Shown here piece after piece: positions 1-16,560 of a DNA stretch of 31,198 nt. The notes below the pieces were generated by a model. That model was not told the origin of the DNA. It saw nothing but the letters and a program-made list of their open reading frames with translations, and did no database searches. The stretch is from NCBI GenBank assembly GCA_013003675.1, contig JABDIP010000452.1, positions 1 through 31,198 on the forward strand, read 5' to 3'. The DNA is from Inquilinus sp. (GTDB lineage: Bacteria; Pseudomonadota; Alphaproteobacteria; DSM-16000; Inquilinaceae). How positions within the stretch are numbered: position 1 is the stretch's first letter; every line of letters starts with the position of its first letter. Made by a program: the position numbers and the translations under genes.

Positions 1-526
1 CGCCGGCGGCGGCGGTTCGCGCGGCCGGCGACGGCTCGCCGTCGTCGTGACGGGCCCGGCTCGGCGCCGTGGTCGGTGGCGCCTCGAGATAACGGCGGAT
101 GGCTTCGAGTGCCGCCGTGTCATCGGCTGCCCGCAGCAGCCAGCCATAGGCGCGGCCCAGAATACCCAGCGCATGGGCGGCGAGGTTGATACCGCACAGC
201 GAGTTGAGCCGCAGCCGGCCGCCGCTGCGCGACTCCGGGAACGCCCATAGGACGATCGGCGCGTCGACCGCCCGCGCGGCGGCCTCGGCCATGCCGGCAT
301 CCGTGAAGGTGACCTGCAGCACCAGCAACAGGTCGAGACGCTCGCCGGCGAGGACGGACAGGGCGCTCTCCGTCGCCGCGGGGTCGAACAGCAGATCCCG
401 CGCCCCGACGATCTCGGCATCGAGCCGGTCGAGGGTGGCGAAGGCGGCCTCGGCCGTCGCCTCGGCGAACGGCACGTCGAAGGTCGGTCGGGCGAGCGGC
501 AGGACGCCGATGCGCGGCCGGGCCAT
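1..526 (-). CDS. L-fucose/L-arabinose isomerase-family protein, N-terminal part (runs off the window edge); probable SqvD/SftI-type sulfoquinovose isomerase
   Basis: Not in the ORF track. Hand translation from ATG at 526, 3 nt after the aldolase stop, gives MARPRIGVLPLARPTFDVPFAE...LLLVLQVTFTDAG...PIVLWAFPESRSGGRLRLNSLCGINLAAHAL, open to position 1. The RPTFD and GGRLRLNSLxG segments match my recollection of this isomerase family; the neighbours are sulfoglycolysis genes. Confidence 0.7.
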   Translation of the reverse strand, partial: MARPRIGVLPLARPTFDVPFAEATAEAAFATLDRLDAEIVGARDLLFDPAATESALSVLAGERLDLLLVLQVTFTDAGMAEAAARAVDAPIVLWAFPESRSGGRLRLNSLCGINLAAHALGILGRAYGWLLRAADDTAALEAIRRYLEAPPTTAPSRARHDDGEPSPAARTAAAG

Positions 527-529
527 CGA

Positions 530-1570
530 TCAGCCGATCCCGCCATAGGTGGAGTTGAACCCGGGGCCGGCGTCGGCGAGTTCGACGCCGTCCGGGAAGC
601 AGGGGTGGTCGTGCCAGGGGGTCGCCGCCGCATAAGTCAGCGCATTCAACTCGCGCATATAGGGTACGGCGTTCTCCATCAGGGCGCGGTTCATCCGATC
701 CATGTCGGGGAAGTGCTGGCCCGCCTGCCACCAGATCGCGCGACCGGCGAGAAAACCGCTGGCGCCGGCACGGTAGGCGTATGTCAGGATGTGGCGGAAG
801 ACATCCTGGCCAGCGCCGGCCGACAGCATCACCCAGGGCCTTGGGCATGCCTTGCCGAGCGCGTCGAACCAGGCCTGAATCTCATCCGATCCCTCGGCCC
901 CAGGTTTGACCAGATTGTCGGCGGCGACCGGGCTTTCCAGCTTGTAGATATCGACGCCGTATTTCGGATCGGCGAAATCCTTCATGCTGTCGATCACCAG
1001 CTGCGGGCGCTTCGCCGCGTGCTCGATATAGTCCTGGGTCTGTCCCGACTCGCCGGGCAGCGGGTAGACCAGCAGTTCGAGCAGGAAGCAGATGTCATGG
1101 GCACGGCAGGCCTGGCCGACCGACTCCACGAAGCGTTGCTGGTGCTCGACGATCTCCGGTGCGGCGTCCGGACGGTACCACGCCAGAAGCTTCACACCGT
1201 CGGCGCCGAGCCGGCGGATCTTCTCGACGCTCCAATCGGCGATGGCGTGGGTGCGACGCCCGCCGGCGACCTCCTCGAATTGGGAGTCCTCCAGCGTGAG
1301 CAGCAATCCCTGGCTCGGCCGGACATGCCCCACCGCCGCCGGATAGGCGTAGTAGGGGTCGAGCAGCACGGCCGAACTCATCGGCGCCAGGGCGCCGACC
1401 AGCGCCGCCTTGAAGTCGCAGATTTCGGCGAAGTCGGCCTCGGCGACGCCGCGCTTCTCCTTGATCAGGTTGATGATCGGCGGGCGCTGGTCGACGGCGG
1501 TCATCTTGAACCGTCCGGTGTCGTCCGCCAGCCGACGAAAGCCCCACAGTTTACCTGCCGACATCGCCAT
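530..1570 (-). CDS. Class I tagatose-1,6-bisphosphate aldolase (LacD/YihT family); probable sulfofructose-1-phosphate aldolase
   Basis: Motifs AVDQR, SAVLLDP, GADGVKLL, YKLESP, PWVMLSAG and GASGFLAGRAIW. Start placed at 1570 (GGAGG upstream; TGATG overlap with the kinase stop) rather than 1645. Confidence 0.85.
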   Translation of the reverse strand: MAMSAGKLWGFRRLADDTGRFKMTAVDQRPPIINLIKEKRGVAEADFAEICDFKAALVGALAPMSSAVLLDPYYAYPAAVGHVRPSQGLLLTLEDSQFEEVAGGRRTHAIADWSVEKIRRLGADGVKLLAWYRPDAAPEIVEHQQRFVESVGQACRAHDICFLLELLVYPLPGESGQTQDYIEHAAKRPQLVIDSMKDFADPKYGVDIYKLESPVAADNLVKPGAEGSDEIQAWFDALGKACPRPWVMLSAGAGQDVFRHILTYAYRAGASGFLAGRAIWWQAGQHFPDMDRMNRALMENAVPYMRELNALTYAAATPWHDHPCFPDGVELADAGPGFNSTYGGIG

Positions 1571-2487
1571 CACGCAGCCTCCCGCAGCAAAGTGTCCACC
1601 TCGGCCCGGCTGGGGATTCCCGCGCGACCGCCGGGCCGGGTGCATTTCAGCGCCGCCGCCGCGCTGGCGAACCGCACCGCCGCCTCGATCGGCTGTCCCT
1701 CGGCCAGGGCGAGGGCAAGGGCGCCATGGAAGACGTCACCGGCACCGAGGGTGTCGCGGATTGCGACCGGGAAGGCCGGCAGGTGCGCAAGACGCTCGCC
1801 GTCCCGCCAATAGCAGCCATCGCCGCCGGCGGTCACCGCGACCCAGCCCTCGGTCATACGCGCGGCGCGCGCCAACCCTTCGGCCGGGTCGGCGCTGCCG
1901 GTCACCTGCTCCAGGCCGCCGCTCGAAAAGGCGGTGTGGCTGGCCAGGGGCAGCAGAGCGCGCGCCGCGTCGTCGGGCGTGGTGTCTGCGTCGAGGATCG
2001 CCGGCAGGCCGCGCTCCCGCGCCGCTTGCAGCACCGCGCGGGCGCCGTTCGGCCATCTTGCATCGACGAGCACCGCTTGCGCGGAATCCAGATCATGAAG
2101 TGGCAGGAAGCCGGTGTCCGGGTCGAGCGTCTTGTCGGCGAAGGCGATGATCATCCGCTCGCCCTTGGCGTCGACCATGACCGCCGATACCGACGAGCGG
2201 CCGTCCGGGATCCGCCGCGCCGCGGCGATGTCGACGCCCAATTCAGCCAGCTCGTCAAGGATTCGACAGCCCGTGGCGTCGCCGCCGACCCGGCCCCAGA
2301 ACCGGGCGCGTCCGCCCAGCCGGGCGACGGCAACTGCGGCGGTGGCCGCCGGCCCGCCGCCGACCTCGGTGAAACCATCGGCGAAATGCTTGCCGGCCCG
2401 CGCCGGCAGGGCGGCGGTGGCGAATATTTGGTCGAGCACGGCGATGCCGGCGCAGACGACCGCCGGGCCGGTGGCGCTCATCGCCAT
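1570..2487 (-). CDS. yihV: PfkB-family sugar kinase, sulfofructose kinase YihV-like
   Basis: EVGGGPAATAAVAVARLG, SAVMVDAKGERMII, DTLGAGDVFHGALA and AALKCTRPGGRAGIP closely follow E. coli YihV as I recall it. Confidence 0.85.
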   Translation of the reverse strand: MAMSATGPAVVCAGIAVLDQIFATAALPARAGKHFADGFTEVGGGPAATAAVAVARLGGRARFWGRVGGDATGCRILDELAELGVDIAAARRIPDGRSSVSAVMVDAKGERMIIAFADKTLDPDTGFLPLHDLDSAQAVLVDARWPNGARAVLQAARERGLPAILDADTTPDDAARALLPLASHTAFSSGGLEQVTGSADPAEGLARAARMTEGWVAVTAGGDGCYWRDGERLAHLPAFPVAIRDTLGAGDVFHGALALALAEGQPIEAAVRFASAAAALKCTRPGGRAGIPSRAEVDTLLREAA

Positions 2488-2580
2488 CGCCGATCGGCCG
2501 AACCGGCATATCGCGGCCGTTGCGCCATTCGTATCTCCCCCGACCCGGCTTCACGTGGCGCGGGTCCGTATTCGGCGCCA

Positions 2581-2623
2581 ACACTACCTAGCGGCCGGTT
2601 TGTCCGTCAACTCATCTATAAGA
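2581..2623 (-). promoter_or_regulatory. Putative sigma70 promoter (TTGACG-N18-TAGTGT) with adjacent operator-like TCTTATAGATGA, upstream of the kinase-aldolase-isomerase genes
   Basis: The -35 is at 2610-2605 and the -10 at 2586-2581. Positions 2612-2623 match the 3407-3418 palindrome at 10 of 12 positions. Confidence 0.5.
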
Positions 2624-2642
2624 CCTAAGAGTTAGAAGATCT

Positions 2643-3377
2643 CTAGGTCAGTTCACTCAGATAGGCCAGCTTGTCGGTCAGGCAGCGGCTGACGCGCCAT
2701 TCCACCGGGCGATGCTCGATGTCACGGGCGATGCGGTCGATCTCCAGCAACGGCGTGCCGGGCGCGACGGCAAGCTGGGCCGCTTCCTCCGGTTCAGCGG
2801 CCACGGCACGCAGCCGCTCGACGGCGTGCCCGACGGTGACACCGTACCGCCGCTGGTACAAGTCGTAGAGGGTGTTGGGCAGCGGCTCACCGCCCGGACT
2901 ATCGAGATCCGGGAACAGGGCCTGCGGGACAACGATACGCTCGACGATGATCGGATCGCCGTCGATCGACCGGCGGCGATCGATGCGCAAGACCACGGCG
3001 CCGGCCCGCAAACCCAGCGCCGCCGCCTCGGCCGCTCCGGCGATTCCCTTGCGGCAGTCCAACAGTTCGCTTTCCGGCAACTGCCGGTCGCCGTCCGCAT
3101 CGACCAGATGAAAGAAATGGAACAGCGCGGTGTCCGGCGAGTGGGCGGCAACGAAGGTGCCGCGTCCCTGCCGGCGCACGACGAGGTGCTGCGCCGCCAA
3201 ATCGTCCAGGGCCTTCCGCACCGTTCCCTGGCTGACGCCGAGTTCGGCGGCGAGGCGGCCCTCGCTGGGCAGCGCCTCGTCGGGTCGCCAGGTGCCGTCC
3301 GAGATGCGCCGCCGCAGCAGCTCGATCACCTGCTGGTAGAGCGGCCGATAGCCGGGCATCTGCTGTATCGGGTCCAT
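2643..3377 (-). CDS. GntR-family (HutC/UTRA) transcriptional regulator, SuyR-like position
   Basis: N-terminal wHTH (LPSEGRLAAELGVSQGTVRKAL...RRQGRGTFV) followed by a UTRA domain (NTLYDLY...ERLRAV); divergent from suyAB. Confidence 0.92.
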   Translation of the reverse strand: MDPIQQMPGYRPLYQQVIELLRRRISDGTWRPDEALPSEGRLAAELGVSQGTVRKALDDLAAQHLVVRRQGRGTFVAAHSPDTALFHFFHLVDADGDRQLPESELLDCRKGIAGAAEAAALGLRAGAVVLRIDRRRSIDGDPIIVERIVVPQALFPDLDSPGGEPLPNTLYDLYQRRYGVTVGHAVERLRAVAAEPEEAAQLAVAPGTPLLEIDRIARDIEHRPVEWRVSRCLTDKLAYLSELT

Positions 3378-3406
3378 GGAGCGGTCTCTTCAGCCAGCGT
3401 GAGGAC

Positions 3407-3418
3407 TCTTATATAAGA
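3407..3418. promoter_or_regulatory. Perfect 12-bp palindrome TCTTATATAAGA, candidate operator of the GntR regulator
   Basis: Self-complementary AT-rich element in GC-rich DNA, between the divergent gntR and suyA genes. Confidence 0.6.
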
Positions 3419-3429
3419 TATCGGACTGC

Positions 3430-3459
3430 TTGACAGCCCCTCTTCGATCGCCCTAGCTT
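3430..3459 (+). promoter_or_regulatory. Putative sigma70 promoter of suyAB (TTGACA-N18-TAGCTT)
   Basis: Consensus TTGACA at 3430-3435 and a TANNNT hexamer at 3454-3459, about 55 nt upstream of suyA. Confidence 0.55.
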
Positions 3460-3515
3460 CGGCGGTCCGGCGGCGGCCGGGTCGAATTGGGAAGCGCGAG
3501 CGGGGGATCGAGGCG

Positions 3516-3800
3516 ATGCAGCCGCATTTTCTGGTGCATGACAATGGCGACAATGTTGGCGTCGCGGTGGTCGAGGGGATCGCCGCCGGGGCCGAACTGT
3601 CGGGTTGGGTGATGGATACCGACGAGACGATCACCTTGAAGGCGAAGGACGCCATCCCGCTCGGTCACAAGATCGCGCTGAAGGCGCTCCCGGAGGGTGA
3701 GACGGTGGTCAAGTACGGTCACGACGTCGGCCGGGTCGTGGCCGGCGTCGAGCCGGGCGGACACGTCCATGTTCAGAACGTCAAGACGAAGCGCTGGTAA
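3516..3800 (+). CDS. suyA: (R)-sulfolactate sulfo-lyase small subunit (SAF domain, UxaA family)
   Basis: 94 aa with [21 protein letters not shown] and a C-terminal [10 protein letters not shown]; lies directly before the SuyB-like gene. Confidence 0.85.
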
Positions 3801-3814
3801 GGGGGACAACGGAC

Positions 3815-4984
3815 ATGGCCGCGGAACGGATCTTCATGGGCTATCGGCGCGAAAACGATCGCGTCGGCATCCGCAACCACGTCGTCGTCCTGCCGGTCGA
3901 CGATATCTCCAACGCCGCCTGCGAGGCGGTGGCGAACAATATCAAGGGCGTGCAGGCGCTGCCGCACTCCTATGGAAGGCTGCAGTTCGGCGCCGATCTG
4001 GAGCTGACTTTCAGGACGCTGATCGGGACCGGCTGCAATCCGAACGTCGCCGCCGTCATCGTCATCGGCATCGAGCCCGGCTGGACCAAGCGTATCGTCG
4101 ACGGCATCGCCGCCACCGGCAAACCGGTCGAAGGCTTCGCCATCGAGGAGCATGGCGACATCGATACCGTGGCCCGCGCCTCGCGCAAGGCCAAGGAATT
4201 CGTGCAATGGGCGACCGAGAAGCAGCGCGAGGAGGCGAGCCTCGACGAGTTGCACATCGCGACGAAATGCGGCGAATCCGACACCACGTCGGGCCTGGGT
4301 TCCTGTCCGACGGTGGGCAATCTGATCGACAAGGTCGACGTCGCCGGGGCAACGACCTGCTTCGGCGAGACGTCGGAATTGACCGGGGCGGAGATGATCT
4401 GCGCCGACCGGGCGGCAACGCCCGAGGCGCGCGAGAAGTTCGTGCGGACCTGGAATGCCTATAACGACTTCATCAACGAGAACAAGACCGACGACTTGTC
4501 GGAGAGCCAGCCGACCAAGGGCAACATCGCCGGCGGTCTGACCACGATCGAGGAAAAGGCGTTCGGCAACCTTCAGAAGATCGGCAAGGTCGCCCGCTAT
4601 ATCGATGTGTTGGAACCGGCGGAGACTCCGGCCAAGGGTGCCGGCCTCTATTTCATGGACACGTCGTCGGCGGCGGCTGAGTGCAACACGCTGCAGGCGG
4701 CGGCCGGGTTCGTCGTCCATCTGTTCCCGACCGGCCAGGGCAACATCATCGGCAACCCGATCATGCCGGTGATCAAGCTGACCGCCAATCCGAAGACGGC
4801 GCGCACGATGGCCGAGCATATCGACCTCGACGTGTCCGGGCTGCTGCGTCGGGAAATGAACCTGGATGAGGCCGGCGACCGGCTGATCGACATCACACTG
4901 CGGACCTGCAACGGCCGGATGACGGCGGCGGAGGCCCTGGGCCACCGCGAATTCGTCATCACCAAGCTGTACCGCAGCGCCTAG
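3815..4984 (+). CDS. suyB: (R)-sulfolactate sulfo-lyase large subunit (UxaA/GarD family)
   Basis: [62 protein letters not shown] and the C-terminal [14 protein letters not shown] are characteristic of SuyB as I recall it. Confidence 0.88.
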
Positions 4985-5013
4985 TCGGCTGGAACCAAGG
5001 CCGGACGGAGTCG

Positions 5014-5042
5014 CTTTGCGCCGGCTTGCCGTCCGCTATACT
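5014..5042 (+). promoter_or_regulatory. Possible internal promoter for the TTT genes (-10 TATACT at 5037-5042)
   Basis: Strong -10 hexamer with a weak upstream CTTTGC, inside the 122-nt gap between suyB and tctC. Confidence 0.3.
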
Positions 5043-5106
5043 CGGTGGCGAAGAAAGAGCCGGGCCCCTGGAGGCCCAGCCTCAATCAAGATCGGGAGGT
5101 ATCGCC

Positions 5107-6063
5107 ATGAGAATTCTTCGGACGCTGTTGACCGCCGTCGCCGCTGTCGCGGTGATCGGAGCCCCCGTCGCCCAGGCCGAGTTTCCGGAAAAACCGATGA
5201 ATTTCATCGTCGCCTTCAACCCGGGCGGCGAGACCGACGTGACGGCGCGGCTGCAGCAACCCTACTACGAGAAAGTTGCCGGCCAGCCGCTGGTGATCCA
5301 GTACAAGCCCGGCGCCGGCGGTGCCCAGGCCTGGGCCGGTCTGAACGAGCTACCGGGCGACGGCTACACGATGGTCGGCACCAATCTGCCGCACATCATC
5401 CTGCAACCGATGGAGAAGGACGTCGGGTACGAGACCGCCGATATCACCAACGTCTACATGTTCCACTACACGCCGGATGCCGTGCTGGTGCCGCAGGACA
5501 GCCCGTTCCAGACACTGGCCGACCTAGTCGCCTACGCGAAGTCGACGCCCGGCGCGGTCACCTTGTCCGGCTCCGGCACCAATACGGCCAACCATCTGGC
5601 GCAGCGGCGGTTCAGCGAGATGGCCGGGATCACCACCACCTATGTGCCGTTCGGCGGCACCGGGCCGTCGGTGACCGCGGTGCTCGGCAACCAGGTGAGT
5701 GGCGCGATGGGCTATTCCACGGTCGGTGTCGCCCAGGAAGGCCAGCTTCGCATGCTGGCGGTCGCCACCGATCAGCGGCTGCCCCGCTTCCCCGACGTGC
5801 CGACCTTCAAGGAATTGGGCTACGACCTTGTTTCGGGCGCCTATCGCGGCATCGCGGTGCCGAAATCGACATCGGAGGAAGTTCGCCACCAGGTCTCCGA
5901 CATCATCGGCCGGATCAATGCCGATCCCGATTTCATCCAACAGATGGAGGATGGCGGCTTCGTCGTGATCGACGTGCCCTATGACGAGGTGCCGGCATTC
6001 ATGGCGGCGAAACAGAGCGAGTATGGCGAACTGGCCGACGCCATGGGCATCCGCAAGCGCTAG
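5107..6063 (+). CDS. tctC: Tripartite tricarboxylate transporter substrate-binding protein (Bug/TctC); probable sulfolactate binding
   Basis: Signal peptide, FNPGGETDVTAR, KPGAGGA and VPFGGTGPSVTAVLG. GGGAGG precedes the ATG at 5107, so this start is preferred over the TTG at 5026. Confidence 0.9.
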   Translation: MRILRTLLTAVAAVAVIGAPVAQAEFPEKPMNFIVAFNPGGETDVTARLQQPYYEKVAGQPLVIQYKPGAGGAQAWAGLNELPGDGYTMVGTNLPHIILQPMEKDVGYETADITNVYMFHYTPDAVLVPQDSPFQTLADLVAYAKSTPGAVTLSGSGTNTANHLAQRRFSEMAGITTTYVPFGGTGPSVTAVLGNQVSGAMGYSTVGVAQEGQLRMLAVATDQRLPRFPDVPTFKELGYDLVSGAYRGIAVPKSTSEEVRHQVSDIIGRINADPDFIQQMEDGGFVVIDVPYDEVPAFMAAKQSEYGELADAMGIRKR

Positions 6064-6099
6064 GCGGCCCTGGCCACCGCCGGCCCGGCCGCAACCGGC

Positions 6100-7602
6100 A
6101 TGCTGGACTTCCTCGCGCAGGCGCTGACGCCGTTCAACCTGACGCTGGCCTTGGTCGGTGTCGTGTTGGGGACGGTGATCGGCGCCCTGCCGGGGTTGTC
6201 GGCGACCATGGCGGTGGCGGTGCTGGTGCCGTTCACCTTCGCGATGGACCCGGCCTCGGGGCTGATCGCGCTCGGCGCCATCTATACCGGCGCCATCTAT
6301 GGCGGCGCCTTCGCCGCCATCCTGGTCAACACGCCGGGGACGCCGTCGGCAATCGCCACAACCTTCGACGGCTATCCGATGGCCCGGCGCGGCGATGGCA
6401 GTTTGGCAGTGACCCTGGCTACCCTGTCCTCGGTCACCGGCGGGCTGGTCGGCGCCGTCTTCCTGTTGCTGCTGGCGCCGCCGCTGGCCAAGGTGGCGCT
6501 GGCCTTCGGGCCGCCGGAGTATTTCTGGCTGGCGGTGTTCGGGCTGACGCTGATCTCCGCCCTGTCCACCGGCAATATGCTGAAGGGGCTGATCGGCGCC
6601 TGTTTCGGCCTGTTGTTGTCGATGGTCGGGGTGGCGGTGGTCGGCGGCGACATCCGCTTCACCCTCGAGAGCCAGACGCTGCTCGGCGGCATCAACGTGA
6701 TCGCGGCGCTGATCGGGCTCTATTGCATCCCGGTGCTGATCGATCTGGTCGCCACTCCCGATCCGCATCTGAAGGTCGCCGCGGGAGCCGGCGGTTTCCG
6801 CTTGGCCGAGGCGGCGCGGCTGGCGTGGCGCAGCAAGGTGAACCTGCTACGCAGTTCGGTCATTGGCACGCTGGTCGGCATCCTGCCCGGGGCCGGCGGT
6901 TCGATCGCCGCGCTGGTCTCTTATTCCGAGGCGCGGCGTTCGTCAAAGCGGCCGGAGCGGTTCGGCCAGGGCGAGCCGGACGGCATCATGGCCACTGAAA
7001 GCGCCAACAACGCCACGGTCGGCGGCGGCTTCATCCCGACCCTGGTGCTCGGCATCCCCGGCACACCGCCCGACGCGGTGATCCTCGGGGCCTTGCTGGT
7101 GCAGGGTATCCGCACCGGCCCGACCCTGTTCGTGCAACAGGGATCGATCGTCTACACCTTCATCTTCGGGCTGCTGATCGCCACCGTGCTGATGCTGCCG
7201 ACCGGCCTGGTGCTCGGCCGCTACGCCTATCAGTCGATCGTCTCGATCCCCAAGGCGGTGCTGGTGCCGACGGTGGCGTTCATGACCGTCATCGGCTCCT
7301 ACGCCATCCAGAACAGCCCCTCCGACGTGGTCATCATGTGGGCGCTGGGCGTGATGGGCTGGGGGTTGAACCGCTTCGGCTTCTCGCCGTCGCCGATCGT
7401 GCTCGGCCTCATCCTCGGGCAGATCGCCGAGCAGGGGTTCGTGCAGGCTTATCTGATCGGCAACGCGACGGGCAACGTGGCGGGCATGTATTTCGGCCGG
7501 CCGATCAGCCTGGCGATCCTGGCCCTGGCCCTGCTGACGCTGTTCTATCCCTGGCTTTCGGATCGCTGGCGCAGGCGCCGGCGGGGGACTCCGGATGACT
7601 GA
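6100..7602 (+). CDS. tctA: Tripartite tricarboxylate transporter large permease
   Basis: Hydrophobic 500 aa with GALPGLSATM, NTPGTPSAIATTFDGYPM and LGIPGTPPDAVILGAL. Confidence 0.92.
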   Translation: MLDFLAQALTPFNLTLALVGVVLGTVIGALPGLSATMAVAVLVPFTFAMDPASGLIALGAIYTGAIYGGAFAAILVNTPGTPSAIATTFDGYPMARRGDGSLAVTLATLSSVTGGLVGAVFLLLLAPPLAKVALAFGPPEYFWLAVFGLTLISALSTGNMLKGLIGACFGLLLSMVGVAVVGGDIRFTLESQTLLGGINVIAALIGLYCIPVLIDLVATPDPHLKVAAGAGGFRLAEAARLAWRSKVNLLRSSVIGTLVGILPGAGGSIAALVSYSEARRSSKRPERFGQGEPDGIMATESANNATVGGGFIPTLVLGIPGTPPDAVILGALLVQGIRTGPTLFVQQGSIVYTFIFGLLIATVLMLPTGLVLGRYAYQSIVSIPKAVLVPTVAFMTVIGSYAIQNSPSDVVIMWALGVMGWGLNRFGFSPSPIVLGLILGQIAEQGFVQAYLIGNATGNVAGMYFGRPISLAILALALLTLFYPWLSDRWRRRRRGTPDD

Positions 7603-8083
7603 CGGCATCGAGGGCGGCGGCCCGAAATACCGCGACTACCCGTCGATCGGCCTTGCCGTTCTGTTCGCTCTGCTCGGTGTCTGGGTGCTGTTCGAGACAA
7701 CGGCGATGACGGCGTTCGGCTCGATCTTCCCGCGCGCCATCGCGATCGCCATGATCGTCCTGTCGATGGCGCTGGTGGTCCAGCAGCTCCGGCGCCCGAG
7801 GCGGCCGGGCCCGGGCCGGCCGTCGTCAGGGCCTGAGTCGACGCCGCGGCGGGTGGCATTGGCGGCAGTCATGGCGGCCTGGGCATTGTCGATGCCGGTG
7901 GTCGGCTTTTTCGTGACCAGCCTGCTGGCGTTCCTGGTGCTCTTGGCGGTCGCCAATTATGACGGCTGGACGCCGCGCCGTATGCTCCTCTATGGCGCAT
8001 CCGGGGTCGTGGTAGTCGCTGGCTTCTATCTGCTGTTCGTCAAGGCGCTGCTGGTGCCGGTTCCGAGCGGTTGGCTGTTCTGA
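7595..8083 (+). CDS. tctB: Tripartite tricarboxylate transporter small permease
   Basis: 162 aa with about four hydrophobic segments, FPRAI, and C-terminal LLVPVPSG; overlaps the tctA stop. Confidence 0.85.
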   Translation: MTDGIEGGGPKYRDYPSIGLAVLFALLGVWVLFETTAMTAFGSIFPRAIAIAMIVLSMALVVQQLRRPRRPGPGRPSSGPESTPRRVALAAVMAAWALSMPVVGFFVTSLLAFLVLLAVANYDGWTPRRMLLYGASGVVVVAGFYLLFVKALLVPVPSGWLF

Positions 8084-8096
8084 GGAATTTCCCGGC

Positions 8097-9029
8097 GTGA
8101 CCGACATCTTGATCTCCGAGTTCATGGACGCGGCGGCTATCGACGGGCTGTCCGCCGACTTCGCCGTCCGCTACGACCGTACGCTGGTCGACCGGCCGGA
8201 CGAGCTTCGGGCGGCGGTGGCCGGCGTGCGGGCGCTGATCGTCCGCAACCGCACCCAGGTGCGCGGGGCGCTGCTGGGGGCGGCCGGATCGCTGGAGGCG
8301 GTCGGTCGGCTCGGCGTCGGACTCGACAACATCGATGTCGACGCCTGCAAGGCGCGAGGGATTGCCGTGCTGCCGGCAACCGGCGCCAACGACGTCAGCG
8401 TTGCCGAATACGTCGTCGGCGGCTTGCTGATGCTGCTGCGCGGCGCCTATTTCGCCAGCGCTGCCGTGGCCGCCGGCGACTGGCCGCGCGAGCGGCTGAT
8501 CGGACGCGAGGCCGCCGGGATGACGCTCGGCCTGGTCGGCTTTGGCGGGATTGCCCGCGCCGTCGCGCGCCGGGCGGCGGCACTGGAGATGCGGCTGGTC
8601 GGCCACGACCCGTACCTCGCCGACGACGATCCGGCCTGGGCCGGGCATGGGACGACGCCGGTGCCGTTCGACCGGCTGCTCGCCGGGGCCGACGTGGTCA
8701 GCCTGCACGTGCCGCTGACCGACGCCACCCGCCATCTGATCGGCGCCGCGGCGCTGGCCGCGATGCGTGACGGCGCGGTGCTGATCAACGCCGCGCGCGG
8801 TGGCGTCGTCGATGAGGCGGCGCTGGCGGACGCCCTGCGCGGCGGGACGCTGGGGGGTGCGATGCTGGATGTCTTCGAGCGGGAACCGCTGCCGGCCGGC
8901 GCCGGGTTCGAGGATCTGCCGAATCTGATCCTGACCCCGCACATCGCCGGGGTGACGCAGCAATCGAATGTGCGGGTCAGCGCGGTGGTCGCCGACAAGG
9001 TGCGCCGGATTTTGGGGGTGCGGCAATGA
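8097..9029 (+). CDS. slcC: D-isomer 2-hydroxyacid dehydrogenase, (S)-sulfolactate dehydrogenase SlcC-like
   Basis: GRLGVGLDNID, GLVGFGGIA, SLHVPLT, INAARG and TPHIAG; N-terminus ILISEFMD; sulfolactate gene context. Confidence 0.8.
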   Translation: MTDILISEFMDAAAIDGLSADFAVRYDRTLVDRPDELRAAVAGVRALIVRNRTQVRGALLGAAGSLEAVGRLGVGLDNIDVDACKARGIAVLPATGANDVSVAEYVVGGLLMLLRGAYFASAAVAAGDWPRERLIGREAAGMTLGLVGFGGIARAVARRAAALEMRLVGHDPYLADDDPAWAGHGTTPVPFDRLLAGADVVSLHVPLTDATRHLIGAAALAAMRDGAVLINAARGGVVDEAALADALRGGTLGGAMLDVFEREPLPAGAGFEDLPNLILTPHIAGVTQQSNVRVSAVVADKVRRILGVRQ

Positions 9030-10033
9030 GTAGCAAGCGTCTTTCTCTCGCCGAGGCCCGCGACTTGGCGGCCCTGGTCCTGCGCAGGGCGAACACCGAA
9101 TCTGCGAATGCGGCGGTGGTCGCCGAGGCGCTGGTGCTGGCCGAGGCCGATTTGCTCTCCTCGCACGGGCTCGCCCGGCTGCCGGCCTATGCCGATCAGG
9201 CCGCCGCCGGCAAGGTCGATGGCCATGCGGTACCCACCCTCCGACAGACCAGGCCGGCGGCATTGCTGGTCGATGCCGGGACCGGGTTCGCCTTTCCCGC
9301 CATCGACAAGGGACTGCCGGCACTGCAGGCCCTGGCCGGTGAGACCGGGATTGCCGCGCTGGCGATCGGCAATTCGCACCATTTCGGCGTCGCCGGCCAC
9401 CCCGTCGAGGCGCTGGCGCGGGCCGGCATGCTCGGCATTGCCATGGGCAACGCGCCGGCAGCGATCGCCCCCTGGGGCGGCCACAAGCCCTTGTTCGGCA
9501 CCAATCCGATCGCCTTTGCCTGTCCGCGCGAGGGCCATGACCCGATCGTCGTCGATCTGAGCCTGAGCCGCGTCGCCCGCGGCAAGGTGATGCTCGCCGC
9601 CCAGCGCGGCCAGCCGATCCCCGACAATTGGGCGCTCGACGCCGACGGCAGCCCGACCACCGATGCGAAGGCGGCGCTGGAAGGCAGCATGCTGCCGTTG
9701 GGCGATGCCAAGGGCGCGGCGCTGGTCCTGATGGTGGAGATCCTGGCGACCTGCCTCACCGGGTCGAATTTCGGCTACGAGGCTTCGACCTTCTTCAATG
9801 CCAAGGGCGGACCGCCCCGGGTCGGCCAGTTCTTCCTGGCGATCGCGCCGGAGGCCATGGGAGGAGACAATTTCGCCACCCGCGTCGAGACGCTGATCTC
9901 GGCGATTCTTGACCAGCCGGGGACCCGGCTGCCCGGCATCCGGCGCTTCGAGGCCAGGGCGCAGTCGGAACGCGACGGGATCGTGCTGCCCGAAGCGCTT
10001 TACGCCGATATCGCGGCGCGTGCCGCCGGGTAG
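9026..10033 (+). CDS. comC: Ldh_2/ComC-family dehydrogenase, (R)-sulfolactate dehydrogenase-like
   Basis: SHGLARL, NSHHFG, FGTNPIAFA and GDAKGAAL; ATGA overlap with slcC. Confidence 0.8.
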   Translation: MSSKRLSLAEARDLAALVLRRANTESANAAVVAEALVLAEADLLSSHGLARLPAYADQAAAGKVDGHAVPTLRQTRPAALLVDAGTGFAFPAIDKGLPALQALAGETGIAALAIGNSHHFGVAGHPVEALARAGMLGIAMGNAPAAIAPWGGHKPLFGTNPIAFACPREGHDPIVVDLSLSRVARGKVMLAAQRGQPIPDNWALDADGSPTTDAKAALEGSMLPLGDAKGAALVLMVEILATCLTGSNFGYEASTFFNAKGGPPRVGQFFLAIAPEAMGGDNFATRVETLISAILDQPGTRLPGIRRFEARAQSERDGIVLPEALYADIAARAAG

Positions 10034-10256: not shown

Positions 10257-11195
10257 TTGTTCAAGCAACCGAGATGGACGCGACTGGCGGCGGCCATCCT
10301 GGCCGTCGTGCTTTCTTCCGGTCCTTCGCGAGCCGACGAACCGACCGCCTCTCGCGAGCAGACGCTCGTGGTGGGGCGGGTGTCGCAGGACCCGGTCAAG
10401 ACGTTGCCGCGCCTGCGCGCCATGGCCGCCTATCTGGAAACCCGGCTGGCGAGCGCCGGCATCACCGCCAGCGAGGTCATTGTCGTTCGCAGCAACGCGG
10501 AAATGGTGGAGCTGCTGCGCTCGGGCGCCGTCGACATGGTCTCGGAAACCGCCATGTCGGCCTTTCAGTTCGTCGAGAAGGCGGACGCCGAAATCCTCTT
10601 GCGCGAATGGAAGCGCGGCGTTGCCGAATACGAGTCGATCCTGATCGTTGGGCGGAACAGCGGCATCACCATGATCGAGGAACTGCGCGATCATGTGATC
10701 GCCTTCGAGGACCCTGGCTCGACCAGCGGTTTCCTGATGCCGATGGCGCTTCTCAGCGAAAACGGCATCTGCGCCGTCCAGCTCGCGGCCCCCGGCCAGC
10801 GGCCGCCGGCCGGCTGCGTCGGCTATCTGTTCACGAATGGCGAGATCAACATCGCCGCCTGGGTCGCGCGGGGCATCACCGACGCCGGCGCGCTCAACAA
10901 CCTCGATTGGGCCGATGAGTCGCGGACGCCGCCGGCGTTGCAGGCGGAGCTGGACATCTTCATGGCCAGCCCGCGGATTCCGCGGTCGGTCGTTCTGGTC
11001 CGCGGCAACACGCGCCCGGAACTACGTGCGGCGCTCCGCGATACCCTGATCGGCATGGAAGCTGACGAACTGGCGGTGGAGGTTCTCAAGATCTACTACG
11101 GCGTCAGCCGCTACGATCCGTTCGTTGGCCAGACCGCGCTCGACCTTGCGGCCGTCCAGCGTCACTACGAGGCGGTCCGCGCCCGACTGCAGTAG
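10257..11195 (+). CDS. PhnD/SsuA-like (phosphate/phosphite/phosphonate) periplasmic substrate-binding protein
   Basis: TTG start after GGGGG, Sec-type signal peptide, YESILIV and IAFEDPGSTSGFLMP oxyanion-binding motif. Confidence 0.8.
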   Translation: MFKQPRWTRLAAAILAVVLSSGPSRADEPTASREQTLVVGRVSQDPVKTLPRLRAMAAYLETRLASAGITASEVIVVRSNAEMVELLRSGAVDMVSETAMSAFQFVEKADAEILLREWKRGVAEYESILIVGRNSGITMIEELRDHVIAFEDPGSTSGFLMPMALLSENGICAVQLAAPGQRPPAGCVGYLFTNGEINIAAWVARGITDAGALNNLDWADESRTPPALQAELDIFMASPRIPRSVVLVRGNTRPELRAALRDTLIGMEADELAVEVLKIYYGVSRYDPFVGQTALDLAAVQRHYEAVRARLQ

Positions 11196-13115
11196 ATGCG
11201 CCTGCGCCTTGAAACACGCTACTCGCTGGCGATCCTGGGCCTGATCGGGTTCGTGGTCGCCAGCCTGTCCACCAGTCTCGTGGTGGCGTCGTGGCGGACC
11301 GCCGAGGCGACAAGGACGGCCAGCGTAGCCGCCATGCAAGAGGCGTTGAGCCGGCAGATCGAGGAGAATGCGGTTGCCGAGGCCGAAGTGCTCGCCGCTT
11401 CGCTCGCCGCGCCGGTCTATTTTCTCGATTTCAGCGTAATCGGCGATCTGCTTGGGTCGACCAAGGCGGCGCAACACATCGTTATCGTGAATCTCGAGGA
11501 TACCGCCGGACGCATCATTCACGACGGCTCGCTCACCCTCGAGAATTACGGCCTGACGAGTGGCAACGCGTCGCGCCGGGACCGTGCCCTGGGCGGCGAG
11601 CGGATAACATGGATCGAGGGCGACGTCTTCAATGTCTACATGCCGGTGGCGATCGGCGATGAGCCGATGGCCTTGCTGCATCTCGGTCTTTCGATGGAGC
11701 GGGCGCGGACCGCGGTGGCGTCGCTGGACACCGACATGCGCCGGATCAGCGAATCCGGTACCGCCCGCACCCTGGCCCTGTCGATCCTGCTATCCCTGCT
11801 GCTGGCGGCGCTCGGCGTATTGCTGGCCTTCTTGGTCGCCCGCCGATTGACCAAGCCGATCCTCAAGCTGTCCGAACTGACCCACCGCGTCGGCCAAGGC
11901 GACTATGACGGCGATCTCGACATCGAGCGCGGCGACGAGATCGGCGATCTGGCGCAGTCCTTCAGCCAGATGACCAAGGATCTGAAACGCACGACGGTGT
12001 CGACCGCCTATCTCGACAATATCCTGCGCAGCATGATGGATCCGCTGTTCGTCCTAGGACCGACGGGCGAGATCCGTACCGTCAACCAATCGGCCTGCGA
12101 TCTGCTGAAATGCGCGGAGGCGGATCTGATCGGCCGACCCGTCGACGGCATGATCCAGGTTGACGACCCCGCGGCGTCACCGGGCATGGGCGGCGCGGAA
12201 GGCGAGTTGTTGTGCTGCGACGGCAGCCGTGTCGCGGTACTGGTCTCGCGCTCGGCGATCGAGCTGCCGAACGGGGCCGGCAGCGTCTGCGTCGTGCGCG
12301 ACATCACCGAACGCAAGCGGTCGGAGATCGCCCTGCGCGCCGCCAAGGAAGACGCCGAACTGGCCAGTCGCACCAAGAGCGAGTTCCTGGCCAATATGAG
12401 CCATGAACTGCGGACGCCGCTCAACGCCATCATCGGCTTCTCCGAGACGATGGTGAACGAACTCTTCGGGCCGGTCGGCTCACCGCGCTATGGCGAGTAC
12501 GCCAACGATATCCGGGAGAGCGGACGACATCTCCTCGGCATCATCGGCGAGATCCTCGACATGGCGAAGATCGAGGCCGGCAAGCTCGACCTCGACGACG
12601 GACCGATGGATCTGGGCTCGGTGGTCACTGCGGCGATGCGGCTGGTCCACTCGCGGGCGGAAAGCCCGGACCTGTCGGTAACTGTGGCGGTGGCGGATGA
12701 CGCCGTCCTCTACGGCGACGAGAAGCTGGTCAAGCAGATCATCCTCAATCTCGCCTCGAACGCCTTCAAGTTCACGCCGGCCGGCGGGCTGGTCTCGATC
12801 AAGGTCCGATATCGCGCCGATGACGGCCTGACGCTGGCGGTCCGGGACAATGGCGTCGGGATCGCCCGCGGCGAGATCGCCAAGGCGATGCAGCCTTTCG
12901 GCCAGGTCGACAGCACGTTGTCGCGCGCCCAGGGCGGCACGGGGCTAGGCCTGCCTCTGGTCCGCGCCTTCACCGAGTTGCACGGTGGCAATTTCCGGCT
13001 GCTGAGCGGCTTCGGGCGCGGCACCGTGGCGCTGGTCGATTTCCCCCCGGTACGGACCCGGCGCAGGAACAAGCCGAACAAGCGGCGACCGGCCGACCGC
13101 GCGAGGGCGTCGTAG
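11196..13115 (+). CDS. Membrane sensor histidine kinase (TM-periplasmic-TM-HAMP-PAS-HisKA-HATPase), PleC/DivJ-like H box
   Basis: HAMP (RGDEIGDLAQSFSQM), PAS (YLDNILRSMMDPLFVL...VNQSAC), EFLANMSHELRTPLNAIIGFSE, NLASNAFKFT, DNGVGI and GGTGLGL; no receiver domain. Confidence 0.93.
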   Translation: MRLRLETRYSLAILGLIGFVVASLSTSLVVASWRTAEATRTASVAAMQEALSRQIEENAVAEAEVLAASLAAPVYFLDFSVIGDLLGSTKAAQHIVIVNLEDTAGRIIHDGSLTLENYGLTSGNASRRDRALGGERITWIEGDVFNVYMPVAIGDEPMALLHLGLSMERARTAVASLDTDMRRISESGTARTLALSILLSLLLAALGVLLAFLVARRLTKPILKLSELTHRVGQGDYDGDLDIERGDEIGDLAQSFSQMTKDLKRTTVSTAYLDNILRSMMDPLFVLGPTGEIRTVNQSACDLLKCAEADLIGRPVDGMIQVDDPAASPGMGGAEGELLCCDGSRVAVLVSRSAIELPNGAGSVCVVRDITERKRSEIALRAAKEDAELASRTKSEFLANMSHELRTPLNAIIGFSETMVNELFGPVGSPRYGEYANDIRESGRHLLGIIGEILDMAKIEAGKLDLDDGPMDLGSVVTAAMRLVHSRAESPDLSVTVAVADDAVLYGDEKLVKQIILNLASNAFKFTPAGGLVSIKVRYRADDGLTLAVRDNGVGIARGEIAKAMQPFGQVDSTLSRAQGGTGLGLPLVRAFTELHGGNFRLLSGFGRGTVALVDFPPVRTRRRNKPNKRRPADRARAS

Positions 13116-13177: not shown

Positions 13178-16100
13178 TCAGCCGAAGAAGCCGATCCGGT
13201 GCGCGGTCGCCGTCGAGATGCGGCGGACCAGTTCATGGAGCCCCAGCAGCGGCTGGAACAGCCCTTCATTCTCGAAGCGATAGCCCTGGCTGTCGTCCGG
13301 CAGATAGTTGGCCGGCTCGCCGAAATCCTGCAACACGATCGTGTCGTGCGTCGTCGGGAAGATCTCCTGCAGCAATTCGACCACCGCCGGCACGTCGAGG
13401 TGCAGCAGGCGCGTGACGATCTGCTGCGGCGTGGCGGCGTGGCGGCTGGAGAATTCCGGGATGCGCACGGCCAGTGCGAAGATCTCGTGGATCACCGCCA
13501 GCCGGATGGCGTGAAGCAGGCCGATGGCGTCCTTTGTCTCCCGGGTGACCAGGGCGCCGCACCCGGCCGGGCGTCCCTCGGTCGCCATCCCGGCGAGGGA
13601 TTTGACCAGGATCTGGAAGTCCTTGTGGAGGCGGCGGAACACTCGCATCTGGCGTTCGTGGAGGGCGGATTCCTCCAGATAACTGGCCAGGGTGAACATC
13701 TCCTCCGCCTTGCCGCGATCCTCCACGGTTCCGGCACGGATGATCCAGAATCCAGGGTCGAGGCTGTCGACGTAACCCTTCATGACATTCGGATCGCTGA
13801 CCGCGGCGCCGTATTCGACGATTCCCATCAATTGGCGCAGCCGGCGCGACTTGCCGTAGAGCTCGCGGAACTGCTCCGGCTCCTTGGCGATCGCGGCGCC
13901 GACGCCGCCGATGCTGTTGGCCAGCAGTCCGAGTTGCATCAGTACCGCGTTGTGCGGGATCGCGCGAAGCTGCGAGGCGTGCGCGTGATCGATCTCGCTG
14001 GGGTCCTCATGCTGCCGTTTCGGCGCCCGGCTGCCGGACGGGAACAGCAGGTTGGCGCCGAACGCCATCAGCAGGACGCCATAGTTGCGGTCGTCCATCA
14101 GCCCGACCTGGAACTCCTTCACGGTGGTGAAGAACTCGCGGATGTAGGAGGCCTCGTCATAGAACGGATCGTCGGCGCTGCCCACCGGCCGGGCCAGCGT
14201 GTGCTCCAGGACCCGGGTCACCACGGCGAAGGCGGCGGCCTGGTTGGCGAAATAGAGGAAGCCGTCGCCGCCCTGAAAGCTGACCTCCTGTTTAAAGTCG
14301 ACGCCGCAATCGGCCATGTAGCCGCGCGTCGCCTGGGTGTCGACGTAGTTCAGCCGTTCCTCGAAGCTGGCCGGATGGGCGCCGCGGCCGATCGACTCGC
14401 CATGGGTGTCGAAGATCAGCAACTGGACGCCGGCCAGCTTGTGCTTGGCCATTACCCGGATCAGGCGCAGGCGTAGCCGTTCGATCGACGCCGAGGCCGG
14501 GGTCTGGCCGAGATAGCGCCCGGCGTCGGAAAACCCGGTCTGGATGCACAGTCGCCCGCGCGCCTCGACATAGGCGCGGTAGTGGGGGTTCTCCAATAGC
14601 TGTTCGACGACCCGGCTGCCCGCTTCCAATGCCCGCTCGGTCTCGAATAGCGGCGAGATGTCGACATCGCGATCGACGCCGAACAGCCGGGCGAAATAGA
14701 GCGCCGTCAGCACCGTGAAGGCGCTCTCGGTTTCCGCGATCAGGAAGCGCACCGGCGCCGACCGGCCGCCGTATTTGAGCATCTGGGCCACGACCATGAA
14801 GAGCTGCTTGACCGAGGTGCGCTCGCTCAGGATCGAACCGAAATTGATGCTGACCGGTTCGACCGCGTCCAGCAGCTCGTTGAGGCGGTCGATATACGAT
14901 TGCCGGTAGCGGGGATCGCCGGGGTCGCTGACCAGTCCGACCAACCGGCGGACCCCGTTGTGCACCTGCTTGGCATTGATGCGGACATGGGTGTGCGCCA
15001 TGCCGAGACCGAGATTGGAAAGTTCGGCACGCAGGGTGCACAGCCTGGTCAGCAGATCGGGGTCGTCGGTTCGGCCGATCGCCCTTGCGACCATCTCGAT
15101 CAGATCGCCGGCATCGGCGAGGCGGAGCGTCATGCCCTCGTACATGCGCCGCGAGACAGCCTTGATCTGCTCGCGCGCCTCGGCCTCGCTGGGCTCCGCG
15201 CCGCCGAATACCGACAGTTCGTCGGAGATCTGGTTGATGGCGAGCGCGATGCGGCTTTCCATCAGGTCCAATGGCTCGCGCAGCGAGCGCGCGTCGCGCC
15301 CGGCATCGCCGCGGATCGAGCGCACCGTTTCAAGATAATGCGCCAGCTGGTGGCGCACGATCTTCAGCCGCTTGACCAGCGTGTCGGTCCAGCGAATGTC
15401 CGAGCGGCCGTCCAGATCGTAGCCGACCCAGGTGGCGACGGTGACCAGCCGGGGGACCAACTCGGTCCATCGGTCCGGATAGGTCTGGCGGGCGACGTCG
15501 AGCAAGATGCCGTTGGCGCGGCGCAATGCGACCTGGATGTTGGCGATGGCCTCCAACGACAGATCATGCTCGCGGGTCAGGTCCAGATCGCGGTCGGGAC
15601 GGTGCTCCTCGCGACGGGCGCGGGAGACCAGCGCCGCCTTGCCGTCGTCGGTGAGCGGCTGGCCGTCCTCGCCGTGGCCGGTCGCCAGCGCCGCCAGGCC
15701 GCGCATCAGCGATGCGGAATTGCTGAAGGTCGGATGGGCGGTGGTGACGATGCCGAAATCCTCCCGCGACACGCGCCGGGCGAATTCCTCGAAGGGCACC
15801 GTCTGGCTGTTCTCGCCAGACTGGGTGAGGGCGGCGAATACCGCGCGCAGCCGTGCCTCGTTCGCTTCCGGTCCGGTTTCGCCGAGATAGCGCCCGAAAC
15901 GCCGGGCCCGGTCGAGATAGCCCTCCACCGTCAGATGCTGGACCAGCTGTTCGAGGGCGCCGAGGCTAAGATGGCCCTGCTCGAGACGGCGCGAGAGATC
16001 GAGCGCCAGCAGCAGGATCGGGTTGCTGAACGGGTTTTCGTCGGTCGCCCTTGAGAACTGCCGCAATTCGGCGGTCAGTTCCGTTGCCAGAGCGGCGGCG

Positions 16101-16219
16101 TCGGTCGGCACCGAGGACGGGAAGACGGCGGCGTCGCCGAGCATGTCGCCCGGCGCGGCGGCCGCCTTCGCCGGGTCGTGCGACGCGCGCCGGCGTGTCG
16201 CCTTGGCCCCTTCCGCCAT
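13178..16219 (-). CDS. ppc: Phosphoenolpyruvate carboxylase, divergent type
   Basis: TAHPT, WVGYDLDGR, PLFET, GFSD, THGESIGRG and LRAIP. The start at 16219 (MAEGAKA) has GAGGAG upstream. Confidence 0.85.
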   Translation of the reverse strand: MAEGAKATRRRASHDPAKAAAAPGDMLGDAAVFPSSVPTDAAALATELTAELRQFSRATDENPFSNPILLLALDLSRRLEQGHLSLGALEQLVQHLTVEGYLDRARRFGRYLGETGPEANEARLRAVFAALTQSGENSQTVPFEEFARRVSREDFGIVTTAHPTFSNSASLMRGLAALATGHGEDGQPLTDDGKAALVSRARREEHRPDRDLDLTREHDLSLEAIANIQVALRRANGILLDVARQTYPDRWTELVPRLVTVATWVGYDLDGRSDIRWTDTLVKRLKIVRHQLAHYLETVRSIRGDAGRDARSLREPLDLMESRIALAINQISDELSVFGGAEPSEAEAREQIKAVSRRMYEGMTLRLADAGDLIEMVARAIGRTDDPDLLTRLCTLRAELSNLGLGMAHTHVRINAKQVHNGVRRLVGLVSDPGDPRYRQSYIDRLNELLDAVEPVSINFGSILSERTSVKQLFMVVAQMLKYGGRSAPVRFLIAETESAFTVLTALYFARLFGVDRDVDISPLFETERALEAGSRVVEQLLENPHYRAYVEARGRLCIQTGFSDAGRYLGQTPASASIERLRLRLIRVMAKHKLAGVQLLIFDTHGESIGRGAHPASFEERLNYVDTQATRGYMADCGVDFKQEVSFQGGDGFLYFANQAAAFAVVTRVLEHTLARPVGSADDPFYDEASYIREFFTTVKEFQVGLMDDRNYGVLLMAFGANLLFPSGSRAPKRQHEDPSEIDHAHASQLRAIPHNAVLMQLGLLANSIGGVGAAIAKEPEQFRELYGKSRRLRQLMGIVEYGAAVSDPNVMKGYVDSLDPGFWIIRAGTVEDRGKAEEMFTLASYLEESALHERQMRVFRRLHKDFQILVKSLAGMATEGRPAGCGALVTRETKDAIGLLHAIRLAVIHEIFALAVRIPEFSSRHAATPQQIVTRLLHLDVPAVVELLQEIFPTTHDTIVLQDFGEPANYLPDDSQGYRFENEGLFQPLLGLHELVRRISTATAHRIGFFG

Positions 16220-16560
16220 GGTCGGCCGCTCCTCTTTCCCAATCCAAGTGTATGCTAGTGCTTCGGTTGTGCGGCGCGGCAACGGTCTTGTCAACGCCGC
16301 GCCTCGGCAGGCGGCCACGCGACCGGTGTTTTCCTAAAATGCCAATCGAATGCTTTTAACCTCCTATTAAAAAGCTCGGGATAGGATCACGAACTTACGG
16401 CAACGAGCGCAGCCCAATCCGGCTGGATCCGGAACGAGGCGCTTCGGGATAAGGGCAGTGGGGCCGTGTTGTGTCGGAATGGCGGGCTTGGCGGGTCGCC
16501 CTGACACGAGGTCGAAAAAGGGACTGCCGACCGGGCGCCGATGGCGCGCTCATCTGCCGT

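Follow-up and report, generated by a model that had tools for sequence, protein, structure and literature searches.

The 31,198-bp contig C457 of a metagenome-assembled genome (MAG) of Inquilinus sp. (JABDIP010000452.1 in assembly GCA_013003675.1), which was analyzed as a whole and is called here the window, carries at positions 1–10033 two divergent gene strings, a sugar arm on the minus strand and a desulfonation arm on the plus strand, with a gene for a GntR-type regulator between them. Comparison with characterized proteins suggests that the two arms probably form one GntR-controlled regulon for the complete catabolism of sulfoquinovose (SQ) in a single cell, in which a hybrid pathway of the sulfoglycolytic Embden-Meyerhof-Parnas type (sulfo-EMP) would be joined to sulfolactate desulfonation. 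The source organism is an uncultured soil or water alphaproteobacterium of the Inquilinaceae, and its MAG comprises 583 contigs. SQ is an abundant plant sulfosugar, of which about 10 Pg are made per year, and reviews usually assign SQ splitting and sulfite release to two cooperating organisms.

In the predicted pathway, SQ or SQ glycosides would enter the cell, probably via a TRAP transporter encoded on an adjoining contig, and the glycosides would be cleaved by a GH188 NAD-dependent sulfoquinovosidase. An SftI-type isomerase would then convert SQ to sulfofructose (SF), a YihV-like kinase would convert SF to sulfofructose-1-phosphate (SFP), and a LacD-like class I aldolase would split SFP into dihydroxyacetone phosphate (DHAP) and (S)-sulfolactaldehyde (SLA). 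An aldehyde dehydrogenase unlinked to the cluster (the candidate is a GabD-type enzyme encoded on contig C258) would oxidize SLA to (S)-sulfolactate, SlcC and ComC would invert the latter via sulfopyruvate to (R)-sulfolactate, and SuyAB would cleave (R)-sulfolactate to pyruvate and sulfite. Sulfo-EMP followed by oxidation yields (S)-sulfolactate, whereas SuyAB is specific for the (R)-form, and SlcC with ComC provides exactly the inversion that is required between the two (PMC12421959). In this species, and not in most of its relatives, an SlcHFG-like tripartite tricarboxylate transporter (TTT) may additionally import external sulfolactate. The substrate of every step, the oxidation of SLA, the specificities of the transporters and the fate of sulfite are given here as we infer them.

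A sequence-only reading of this stretch had listed an isomerase, a kinase, an aldolase, suyA, suyB, a TTT, slcC, comC and an intervening GntR gene, all of which were found, and had proposed the combination of sulfo-EMP with sulfolactate desulfonation. At the genome level the proposal is supported by what was observed directly, namely the gene content, the orthology of the products to characterized YihV, SuyB, SlcC and GH188 proteins, the synteny and the common operator. We lean slightly towards a wider reading as well, in which the window would be a member of a widespread GntR repressor/TCTTATATAAGA regulon by which uncultured Alphaproteobacteria, Gammaproteobacteria and SAR324 mineralize SQ alone, using hybrid sulfo-EMP with a LacD-type SFP aldolase that feeds SlcC/ComC/SuyAB. 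Cross-feeding would then be the exception in soils and waters, and this species, with a gained SlcHFG importer, would combine primary with secondary degradation.

Regulator, predicted operator and conservation of the arrangement

The regulator gene (2643–3377, minus strand) encodes a GntR/UTRA (HutC-type) transcription regulator with Pfam GntR and UTRA domains. A perfect 12-bp palindrome, TCTTATATAAGA, lies in the divergent region between gntR and suyA (3407–3418) and is a candidate operator; a second operator-like site, TCATCTATAAGA, which agrees with it at 10 of 12 positions, lies between gntR and the kinase gene (2612–2623). These are the only two matches to TCTTATATAAGA with at most two mismatches in the 31-kb window, while 0.03 would be expected. 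A scan of positions 2400–3600 for the sigma-70 consensus found nothing.

To describe related loci, species-representative genomes were scanned with an aldolase alignment, which yielded more than 520 loci; the best 80 were analyzed with 10-kb flanks each, and all locus counts given below are among these 80. GntR orthologues (46–81% identity) were found at the same position in 34 of the 80 loci. TCTTATATAAGA with at most one mismatch was present in 32 of these 34 loci, as opposed to four of the 46 loci lacking a GntR orthologue. The loci with TCTTATATAAGA span Alphaproteobacteria, Gammaproteobacteria and SAR324, and the palindrome is positioned in the suyA–gntR spacer and ahead of the sugar genes, in many cases also ahead of the TRAP genes; where the window has TCATCTATAAGA, the relatives carry a palindrome copy with no or one mismatch. 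That both arms are preceded by the same predicted operator is the strongest argument for the arms being one functional unit.

The trio of isomerase, kinase and aldolase genes was found in 66 loci. Thirty two of these, in different species, have suyB within 10 kb, and 27 have suyB together with slcC and comC; among loci of at least 20 kb, suyB was found in 21 of 34 trio loci. Taxa with related loci include Inquilinaceae, Caulobacterales, Steroidobacteraceae, Lysobacterales, Exilibacterium, Alsobacter and SAR324, and the aldolases of loci titled Inquilinaceae are 77–80% identical to that of the window. The arrangement is conserved in same-genus genomes with spanning contigs, and all four of them carry the aldolase. 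The arrangement is not due to chance. In the cultured Exilibacterium tricleocarpae R142 all of these genes lie together, as slcC-comC-suyB-suyA and, divergently, gntR, an aldehyde dehydrogenase gene, the genes for the kinase, aldolase and isomerase, a GH31 gene and TRAP genes.

It could be argued that the arms are two independent neighboring modules, the right one degrading imported sulfolactate, as in Chromohalobacter, and the left one being an ordinary hybrid sulfo-EMP pathway that excretes a C3 sulfonate. The suy operon of the window includes its own TTT importer of the sulfolactate type, no SLA dehydrogenase connects the arms, and all characterized sulfo-EMP organisms excrete 2,3-dihydroxypropane-1-sulfonate (DHPS) or sulfolactate (PMC12890257). 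However, the same operator stands ahead of both arms in the 32 of 34 loci mentioned above, and the trio is joined with suyB, slcC and comC in 27 loci, while a TTT like that of the window was found in none of the 80. In the same-genus genomes G004 and G018, suyB is directly followed by slcC, and suyAB-slcC-comC is retained with no sulfolactate importer, so that the substrate of SuyAB must arise inside the cell. We therefore regard two independent modules as unlikely.

The sugar arm and the adjoining contig

Of the isomerase gene (2–526, minus strand), the 175 codons for the N-terminus are present; the product, a candidate sulfoquinovose isomerase of the SftI/SqvD type (fucose-isomerase family), has 65% identity to residues 1–173 of the 467-residue G004 orthologue. 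The gene is truncated because the window is a whole contig and the gene reaches its end. Residues 287–467 are encoded, in matching orientation, at the end of contig C283 of the same MAG, and a stretch of about 340 bp of the gene falls between the two contigs. The sole NCBIfam match of the full-length G004 isomerase was NF048012 (sulfoquinovose isomerase SftI), with 287 bits over positions 6–439 of 443 and a cut-off of 700 bits, and the isomerase scored 26.8 against a threshold of 29.3 with Pfam Fucose_iso_C. By these scores it is classed as a homolog of SftI/SqvD and not as an equivalog. A search of PDB sequences with the fragment and the full-length protein gave no match, and neither the window nor any of the 80 loci contains a homolog of the SQ isomerase YihS (PF07221, AGE-family).

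The second gene of the trio (1570–2487, minus strand) encodes a YihV-like PfkB kinase, a candidate SF kinase. Its best PDB match is the SF kinase YihV of E. coli (7AG6, 271 bits), followed by an uncharacterized Agrobacterium kinase (223 bits) and ribokinases (at most 121 bits), and it is 49% identical to YihV over 292 residues. D13, K27, S95, R138, D162 (the partner of K27 and R138) and the catalytic D244 of YihV are retained, while N109 is replaced by Ala. K27, N109 and R138 form the sulfonate triad of YihV set out by Sharma et al. (PMC8006165). Among 70 related kinases compared, the N109 position is Asn in 56 and Ala in six.

The aldolase gene (530–1570, minus strand), the start codon of which overlaps the kinase stop codon by 1 nt and which is separated from the isomerase gene by 3 nt, encodes a class I (Schiff-base) LacD-family enzyme (Pfam DeoC/LacD; NCBIfam PRK12858), a candidate SFP aldolase. 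It passes the PRK12858 subfamily model "tagatose-1,6-bisphosphate aldolase" with 356 bits at a cut-off of 184, and its PDB scores are 313 bits for 8TNF (an uncharacterized DUF2090 protein), 145 for LacD and 84 for YihT. Of the two labels given to this enzyme in the sequence-only reading, LacD-like has thus held and YihT-like has not, as the identity to E. coli YihT is 29%. K193 (the Schiff base), S226 (phosphate) and R253 (phosphate and sulfonate) of YihT are conserved, S227 (phosphate) is replaced by Ala and A26 by Pro; in the alignment, an equivalent of R253 occurs in LacD too.

As the kinase belongs to PfkB and the aldolase to DeoC/LacD class I, the PfkA-family SqiK and the class II SqiA of sulfo-EMP2 are not matched. 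Judged by family membership, the sugar arm is a hybrid sulfo-EMP1/2 set with a LacD-like aldolase. This kind of cluster has already been described bioinformatically (PMC10665668). The published hybrid sulfo-EMP clusters (2023, PMC10665668; Wei et al. 2022, PMC9594981) likewise combine an SftI/SqvD-type isomerase (PF02952), a YihV-type kinase (PF00294) and a class I aldolase (PF01791), and SF, SFP, DHAP and SLA are predicted as intermediates in both cases. They differ in that an exporter and either an SLA reductase or an SLA dehydrogenase stand at their end, and they are said to give access to three of the six carbons (PMC10665668; PMC9594981), whereas here one regulator and one operator are common to the sugar genes and suyAB-slcC-comC, and a LacD-like aldolase is encoded.

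Contig C283 adjoins the window and carries the 3' part of the isomerase gene as well as genes for a MauG-like di-heme protein, the TRAP transporter DctPQM and a protein of the Gfo/Idh/MocA type; the order is the same in the complete genome G004, where no gap interrupts it. The Gfo/Idh/MocA protein of G004 scored 404 and 400 bits with the GH188 sulfoquinovosidase (SqgA) structures 8QC3 and 8QC2, respectively, and the copy of the MAG is 74% identical to this orthologue. The sulfonate motif EHRFPFLxK reads EHRFPFLKK in the MAG copy and EHRFPFLTK in G004, with the spacing of R166, L170 and K172, which are the sulfonate-binding residues of GH188 (PMC11465081). By fold and motif, the protein is assigned as a GH188 NAD-dependent sulfoquinovosidase. 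No YihQ-type GH31 was found in the 90% complete MAG. In this genus, the isomerase gene and the TRAP transporter genes are separated by a conserved gene for the 580-residue MauG-like protein, of the di-heme cytochrome c peroxidase family (L102:5445-7412, which is C283; L014:1549-3291).

A glycosidase gene accompanies the trio in 43 of the 66 trio loci (GH31 in 31, GH188 in 12). In many lineages (Exilibacterium, L018:11396-13507, and 30 more loci), the accompanying glycosidase belongs to GH31 and most resembles the alpha-xylosidase YicI and 5F7C. It is 25–30% identical to YihQ and keeps the catalytic Asp residues, and its top NCBIfam match is an alpha-xylosidase model (419 bits). It may be either a new sulfoquinovosidase lineage or an enzyme for another glycoside.

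The left arm might act on a sugar other than SQ, such as the C4 epimer sulfofucose (via sulfotagatose), a non-sulfonated ketohexose or a 6-deoxy sugar. This would agree with the higher score of the aldolase against tagatose-bisphosphate aldolases than against YihT, with the loss of N109 in the kinase, with the GH31 of other lineages being YicI-like and lacking the sulfonate residues of YihQ, and with Paracoccus wurundjeri, which has an orphan PfkB and DeoC pair beside SuyAB and does not grow on SQ (PMC12421959). Nevertheless, we regard it as unlikely, as the GH188 neighbor has the sulfonate motif and shows roughly the similarity to proven sulfoquinovosidases that orthologues would show, YihV is by far the closest solved relative of the kinase, in which K27 and R138 are retained, the isomerase matches SftI only, and an arm co-regulated with a sulfolactate lyase has to yield a sulfonated product.

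The desulfonation arm and the oxidation of sulfolactaldehyde

The plus-strand arm begins with suyA (3516–3800), which encodes the 94-residue small subunit of (2R)-sulfolactate sulfo-lyase, matches the N-terminal part of galactarate dehydratase (TIGR03248, positions 7–79) and lies directly upstream of suyB; copies with 48–77% identity are present in 33 related loci. The suyB gene (3815–4984) encodes the 389-residue large subunit (Pfam GD_AH_second and GD_AH_C), which is identical over its full length at 69% and 68% of positions to the Swiss-Prot entries Q1QWP0 (Chromohalobacter) and Q58Y43 (Paracoccus pantotrophus), respectively. The next entries are altronate dehydratases with 24–25%, and no altronate or galactarate dehydratase exceeds 25%. 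The predicted structure of SuyB is poor (predicted local distance difference test, pLDDT, 47.7), and for this reason only sequence identities, and not fold scores, were used. The identities assign the pair as SuyAB, a split UxaA-type enzyme with a small SAF-like subunit and a large subunit orthologous to characterized SuyB.

The slcC gene (8097–9029, plus strand) encodes an (S)-sulfolactate dehydrogenase of the D-2-hydroxyacid dehydrogenase type (model pLDDT 93.5), the top Swiss-Prot match of which is Q1QWN6 from Chromohalobacter, with 59% identity and a template-modeling score of 0.93 over the full length; the next matches have 36–41%. The adjacent comC-like gene (9026–10033, plus strand), the start of which overlaps the slcC stop, encodes an Ldh_2-family dehydrogenase (Pfam, 342 bits), a candidate (R)-sulfolactate dehydrogenase; its top NCBIfam match, NF040650 (L-sulfolactate dehydrogenase), scored 211 bits at a cut-off of 500. 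These comparisons with SuyB and SlcC, like those with YihV and SftI, favor the sequence-only reading.

Between suyB and slcC, the plus strand encodes a TctC-family solute-binding protein of 318 residues (SlcH-like; about 5107–6063; Pfam TctC), the large TTT membrane subunit TctA (6100–7602; Pfam TctA, 471 bits) and, downstream of tctA and overlapping it, the small membrane subunit TctB (7595–8083; Pfam TctB). The order TctC-TctA-TctB inside a sulfolactate locus is the unusual slcHFG order, tctB after tctA being a peculiarity of the sulfolactate transporters slcHFG (review, PMC5812351).

A window-type TTT was found in one close metagenomic relative (L103), together with an EamA permease. In this relative (8202-9119, 14352-15287), suyB and tctC are separated by the EamA/DMT permease gene, which encodes a candidate exporter, and comC is followed by an additional gene for a 2-hydroxyacid dehydrogenase. 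The nearest named TctC homologs (60–66% identity) are from Aurantimonas sp. (L105:8001-16957) and Arenibaculum sp. (L104), and their genes likewise have the C-A-B order. There the TTT adjoins genes for an enolase-superfamily dehydratase and for a protein of the isocitrate/tartrate-dehydrogenase family, in Aurantimonas also comC-slcC-suyB, so that the ligand of this TTT clade may not be sulfolactate alone.

Seven trio loci have no SuyAB (L017:5874-7121 from Inquilinus sp. CAU 1745, L035, L036, L042, L055, L071 and L079). In these loci an SlcC-like dehydrogenase is paired with a pyridoxal-phosphate-dependent protein of the threonine-synthase family (NF006050, 681 bits; cysteate synthase model, 61 bits), and the Inquilinus locus also has a low-molecular-weight phosphatase. 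In this variant, desulfonation might proceed by another reaction that has not been described so far.

For SLA oxidation, the MAG offers a single strong candidate, the GabD-type dehydrogenase on contig C258, which is unlinked to the cluster and 63% identical to the dehydrogenase encoded within the Exilibacterium cluster. It scored higher with E. coli GabD (774 bits) than with the Rhizobium GabD entry 8C54 (662 bits), which we take to be the SLA dehydrogenase of Rhizobium. Genes of the sulfite-oxidase family and TauE genes are present elsewhere in the MAG, likewise unlinked to the cluster.

Several observations weigh against the reading of the two arms as one SQ regulon. In this genus, no match to TCTTATATAAGA with at most two mismatches was found ahead of the GH188/TRAP operon. 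The aldolase has more in common with tagatose-bisphosphate aldolases than with YihT, and its conserved Arg is also found in LacD, which leaves it a candidate for the SFP role; the kinases of this genus have Ala at the N109 position of the triad; and the GH31 of other lineages, besides being YicI-like, has Phe at both W304 and Y508 of YihQ. Both the window and the same-genus loci (within 10 kb) lack an SLA dehydrogenase gene, and the C258 candidate passes the cut-off of the housekeeping GabD equivalog (854 vs 828 bits). Finally, all of the evidence comes from genomes, and the completeness of the MAG is 90%.

It is very improbable that the pathway is incomplete here, with SLA inefficiently oxidized, reduced and excreted as DHPS and SuyAB serving for scavenged sulfolactate only: a dedicated SLA dehydrogenase is indeed missing and only eight of the 66 trio loci encode an aldehyde dehydrogenase (Aldedh) in the cluster, but no YihU-like SLA reductase was found in the window or, above 30% identity, in any of the 80 loci, the MAG has the GabD similar to the Exilibacterium cluster enzyme, and P. 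wurundjeri forms sulfolactate from SLA with no identified dehydrogenase (PMC12421959).

Similar systems and other genes of the window

The desulfonation arm resembles the sulfolactate locus of Chromohalobacter salexigens DSM 3043 (SuyAB, SlcHFG, SlcC, ComC; Denger and Cook 2010, as cited in PMC5812351 and PMC12421959) in the identities of SuyB (69%) and SlcC (59%) and, as far as the citing papers describe it, in a TTT with tctB downstream of tctA, an Ldh_2-family ComC and a two-dehydrogenase racemase feeding (R)-sulfolactate to SuyAB. In the same accounts, Chromohalobacter is a secondary degrader of imported sulfolactate, whereas here the locus is divergently joined to a sulfosugar operon and most relatives lack the importer.

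The tandem sulfofucolytic-sulfolactate sulfolyase pathway of Paracoccus wurundjeri strain Merri (PMC12421959) similarly combines, in one alphaproteobacterium, sulfosugar cleavage with SlcC/ComC/SuyAB and the release of sulfite, which in our case is predicted from the genes alone; in both systems no SLA dehydrogenase has been identified in the cluster. The Paracoccus route differs in being of the Entner-Doudoroff type and acting on sulfofucose, with an ABC importer and no growth on SQ, while the genes described here are of the EMP type with a sulfoquinovosidase neighbor. The coexistence of both pathways in one bacterium was called unusual in that 2025 paper (PMC12421959). The surroundings of the orphan PfkB/DeoC pair of P. 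wurundjeri were searched for an overlooked isomerase gene; the pair is flanked by ABC-transporter, SDR, MDR and enolase-family genes, and in this other context it is not clearly orthologous (PMC12421959).

A closely similar gene set is that of the actinobacterial GH188 Tyr-variant clusters (Backlund and Higgins 2024, PMC11465081), with an SLA dehydrogenase, a PGDH-like dehydrogenase, SuyA, SuyB, an SFP aldolase, an SF kinase, a fucose isomerase, a regulator and GH188. That description is in silico, gives one representative under "possible new pathways", includes an ABC transporter and does not mention ComC; it also has no complete-mineralization reading, operator or census (PMC11465081). Our literature search found no paper on the proteobacterial regulon, its operator or its breadth. 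The earlier statement that no description of the arrangement was known applies to that regulon and has to be narrowed otherwise, given the actinobacterial gene set (PMC11465081) and the analogous sulfofucose pathway, which has been proven (PMC12421959).

If the reading is correct, a conserved regulon in many uncultured Proteobacteria would alter the assignment of carbon and sulfur fluxes from SQ in metagenomes, and marker sets built on YihS, YihT and YihQ would miss such clusters. The cluster would also supply a LacD-type SFP aldolase to characterize, an operator/regulator pair and, in E. tricleocarpae R142, a cultured test organism, and it sharpens the question of which enzyme oxidizes SLA when the cluster encodes no SlaB.

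In the remainder of the window (13–31 kb) no sulfonate-related genes were found. Positions 13178–16318 encode a protein of 1046 residues with a weak and partial match to phosphoenolpyruvate carboxylase, and positions 22121–27037 carry a string of genes for a cyclopropane-fatty-acid-synthase-like methyltransferase, a DUF1365 protein, an amine oxidase and a photolyase; both are unrelated to the sulfonate cluster. Next to comC (10257–13115), a gene for a PhnD-like binding protein is directly followed by one for a HAMP/PAS histidine kinase, with no permease or response regulator nearby. This pair is kept beside comC in G004 and in the metagenome contig L103 and may belong to the locus.

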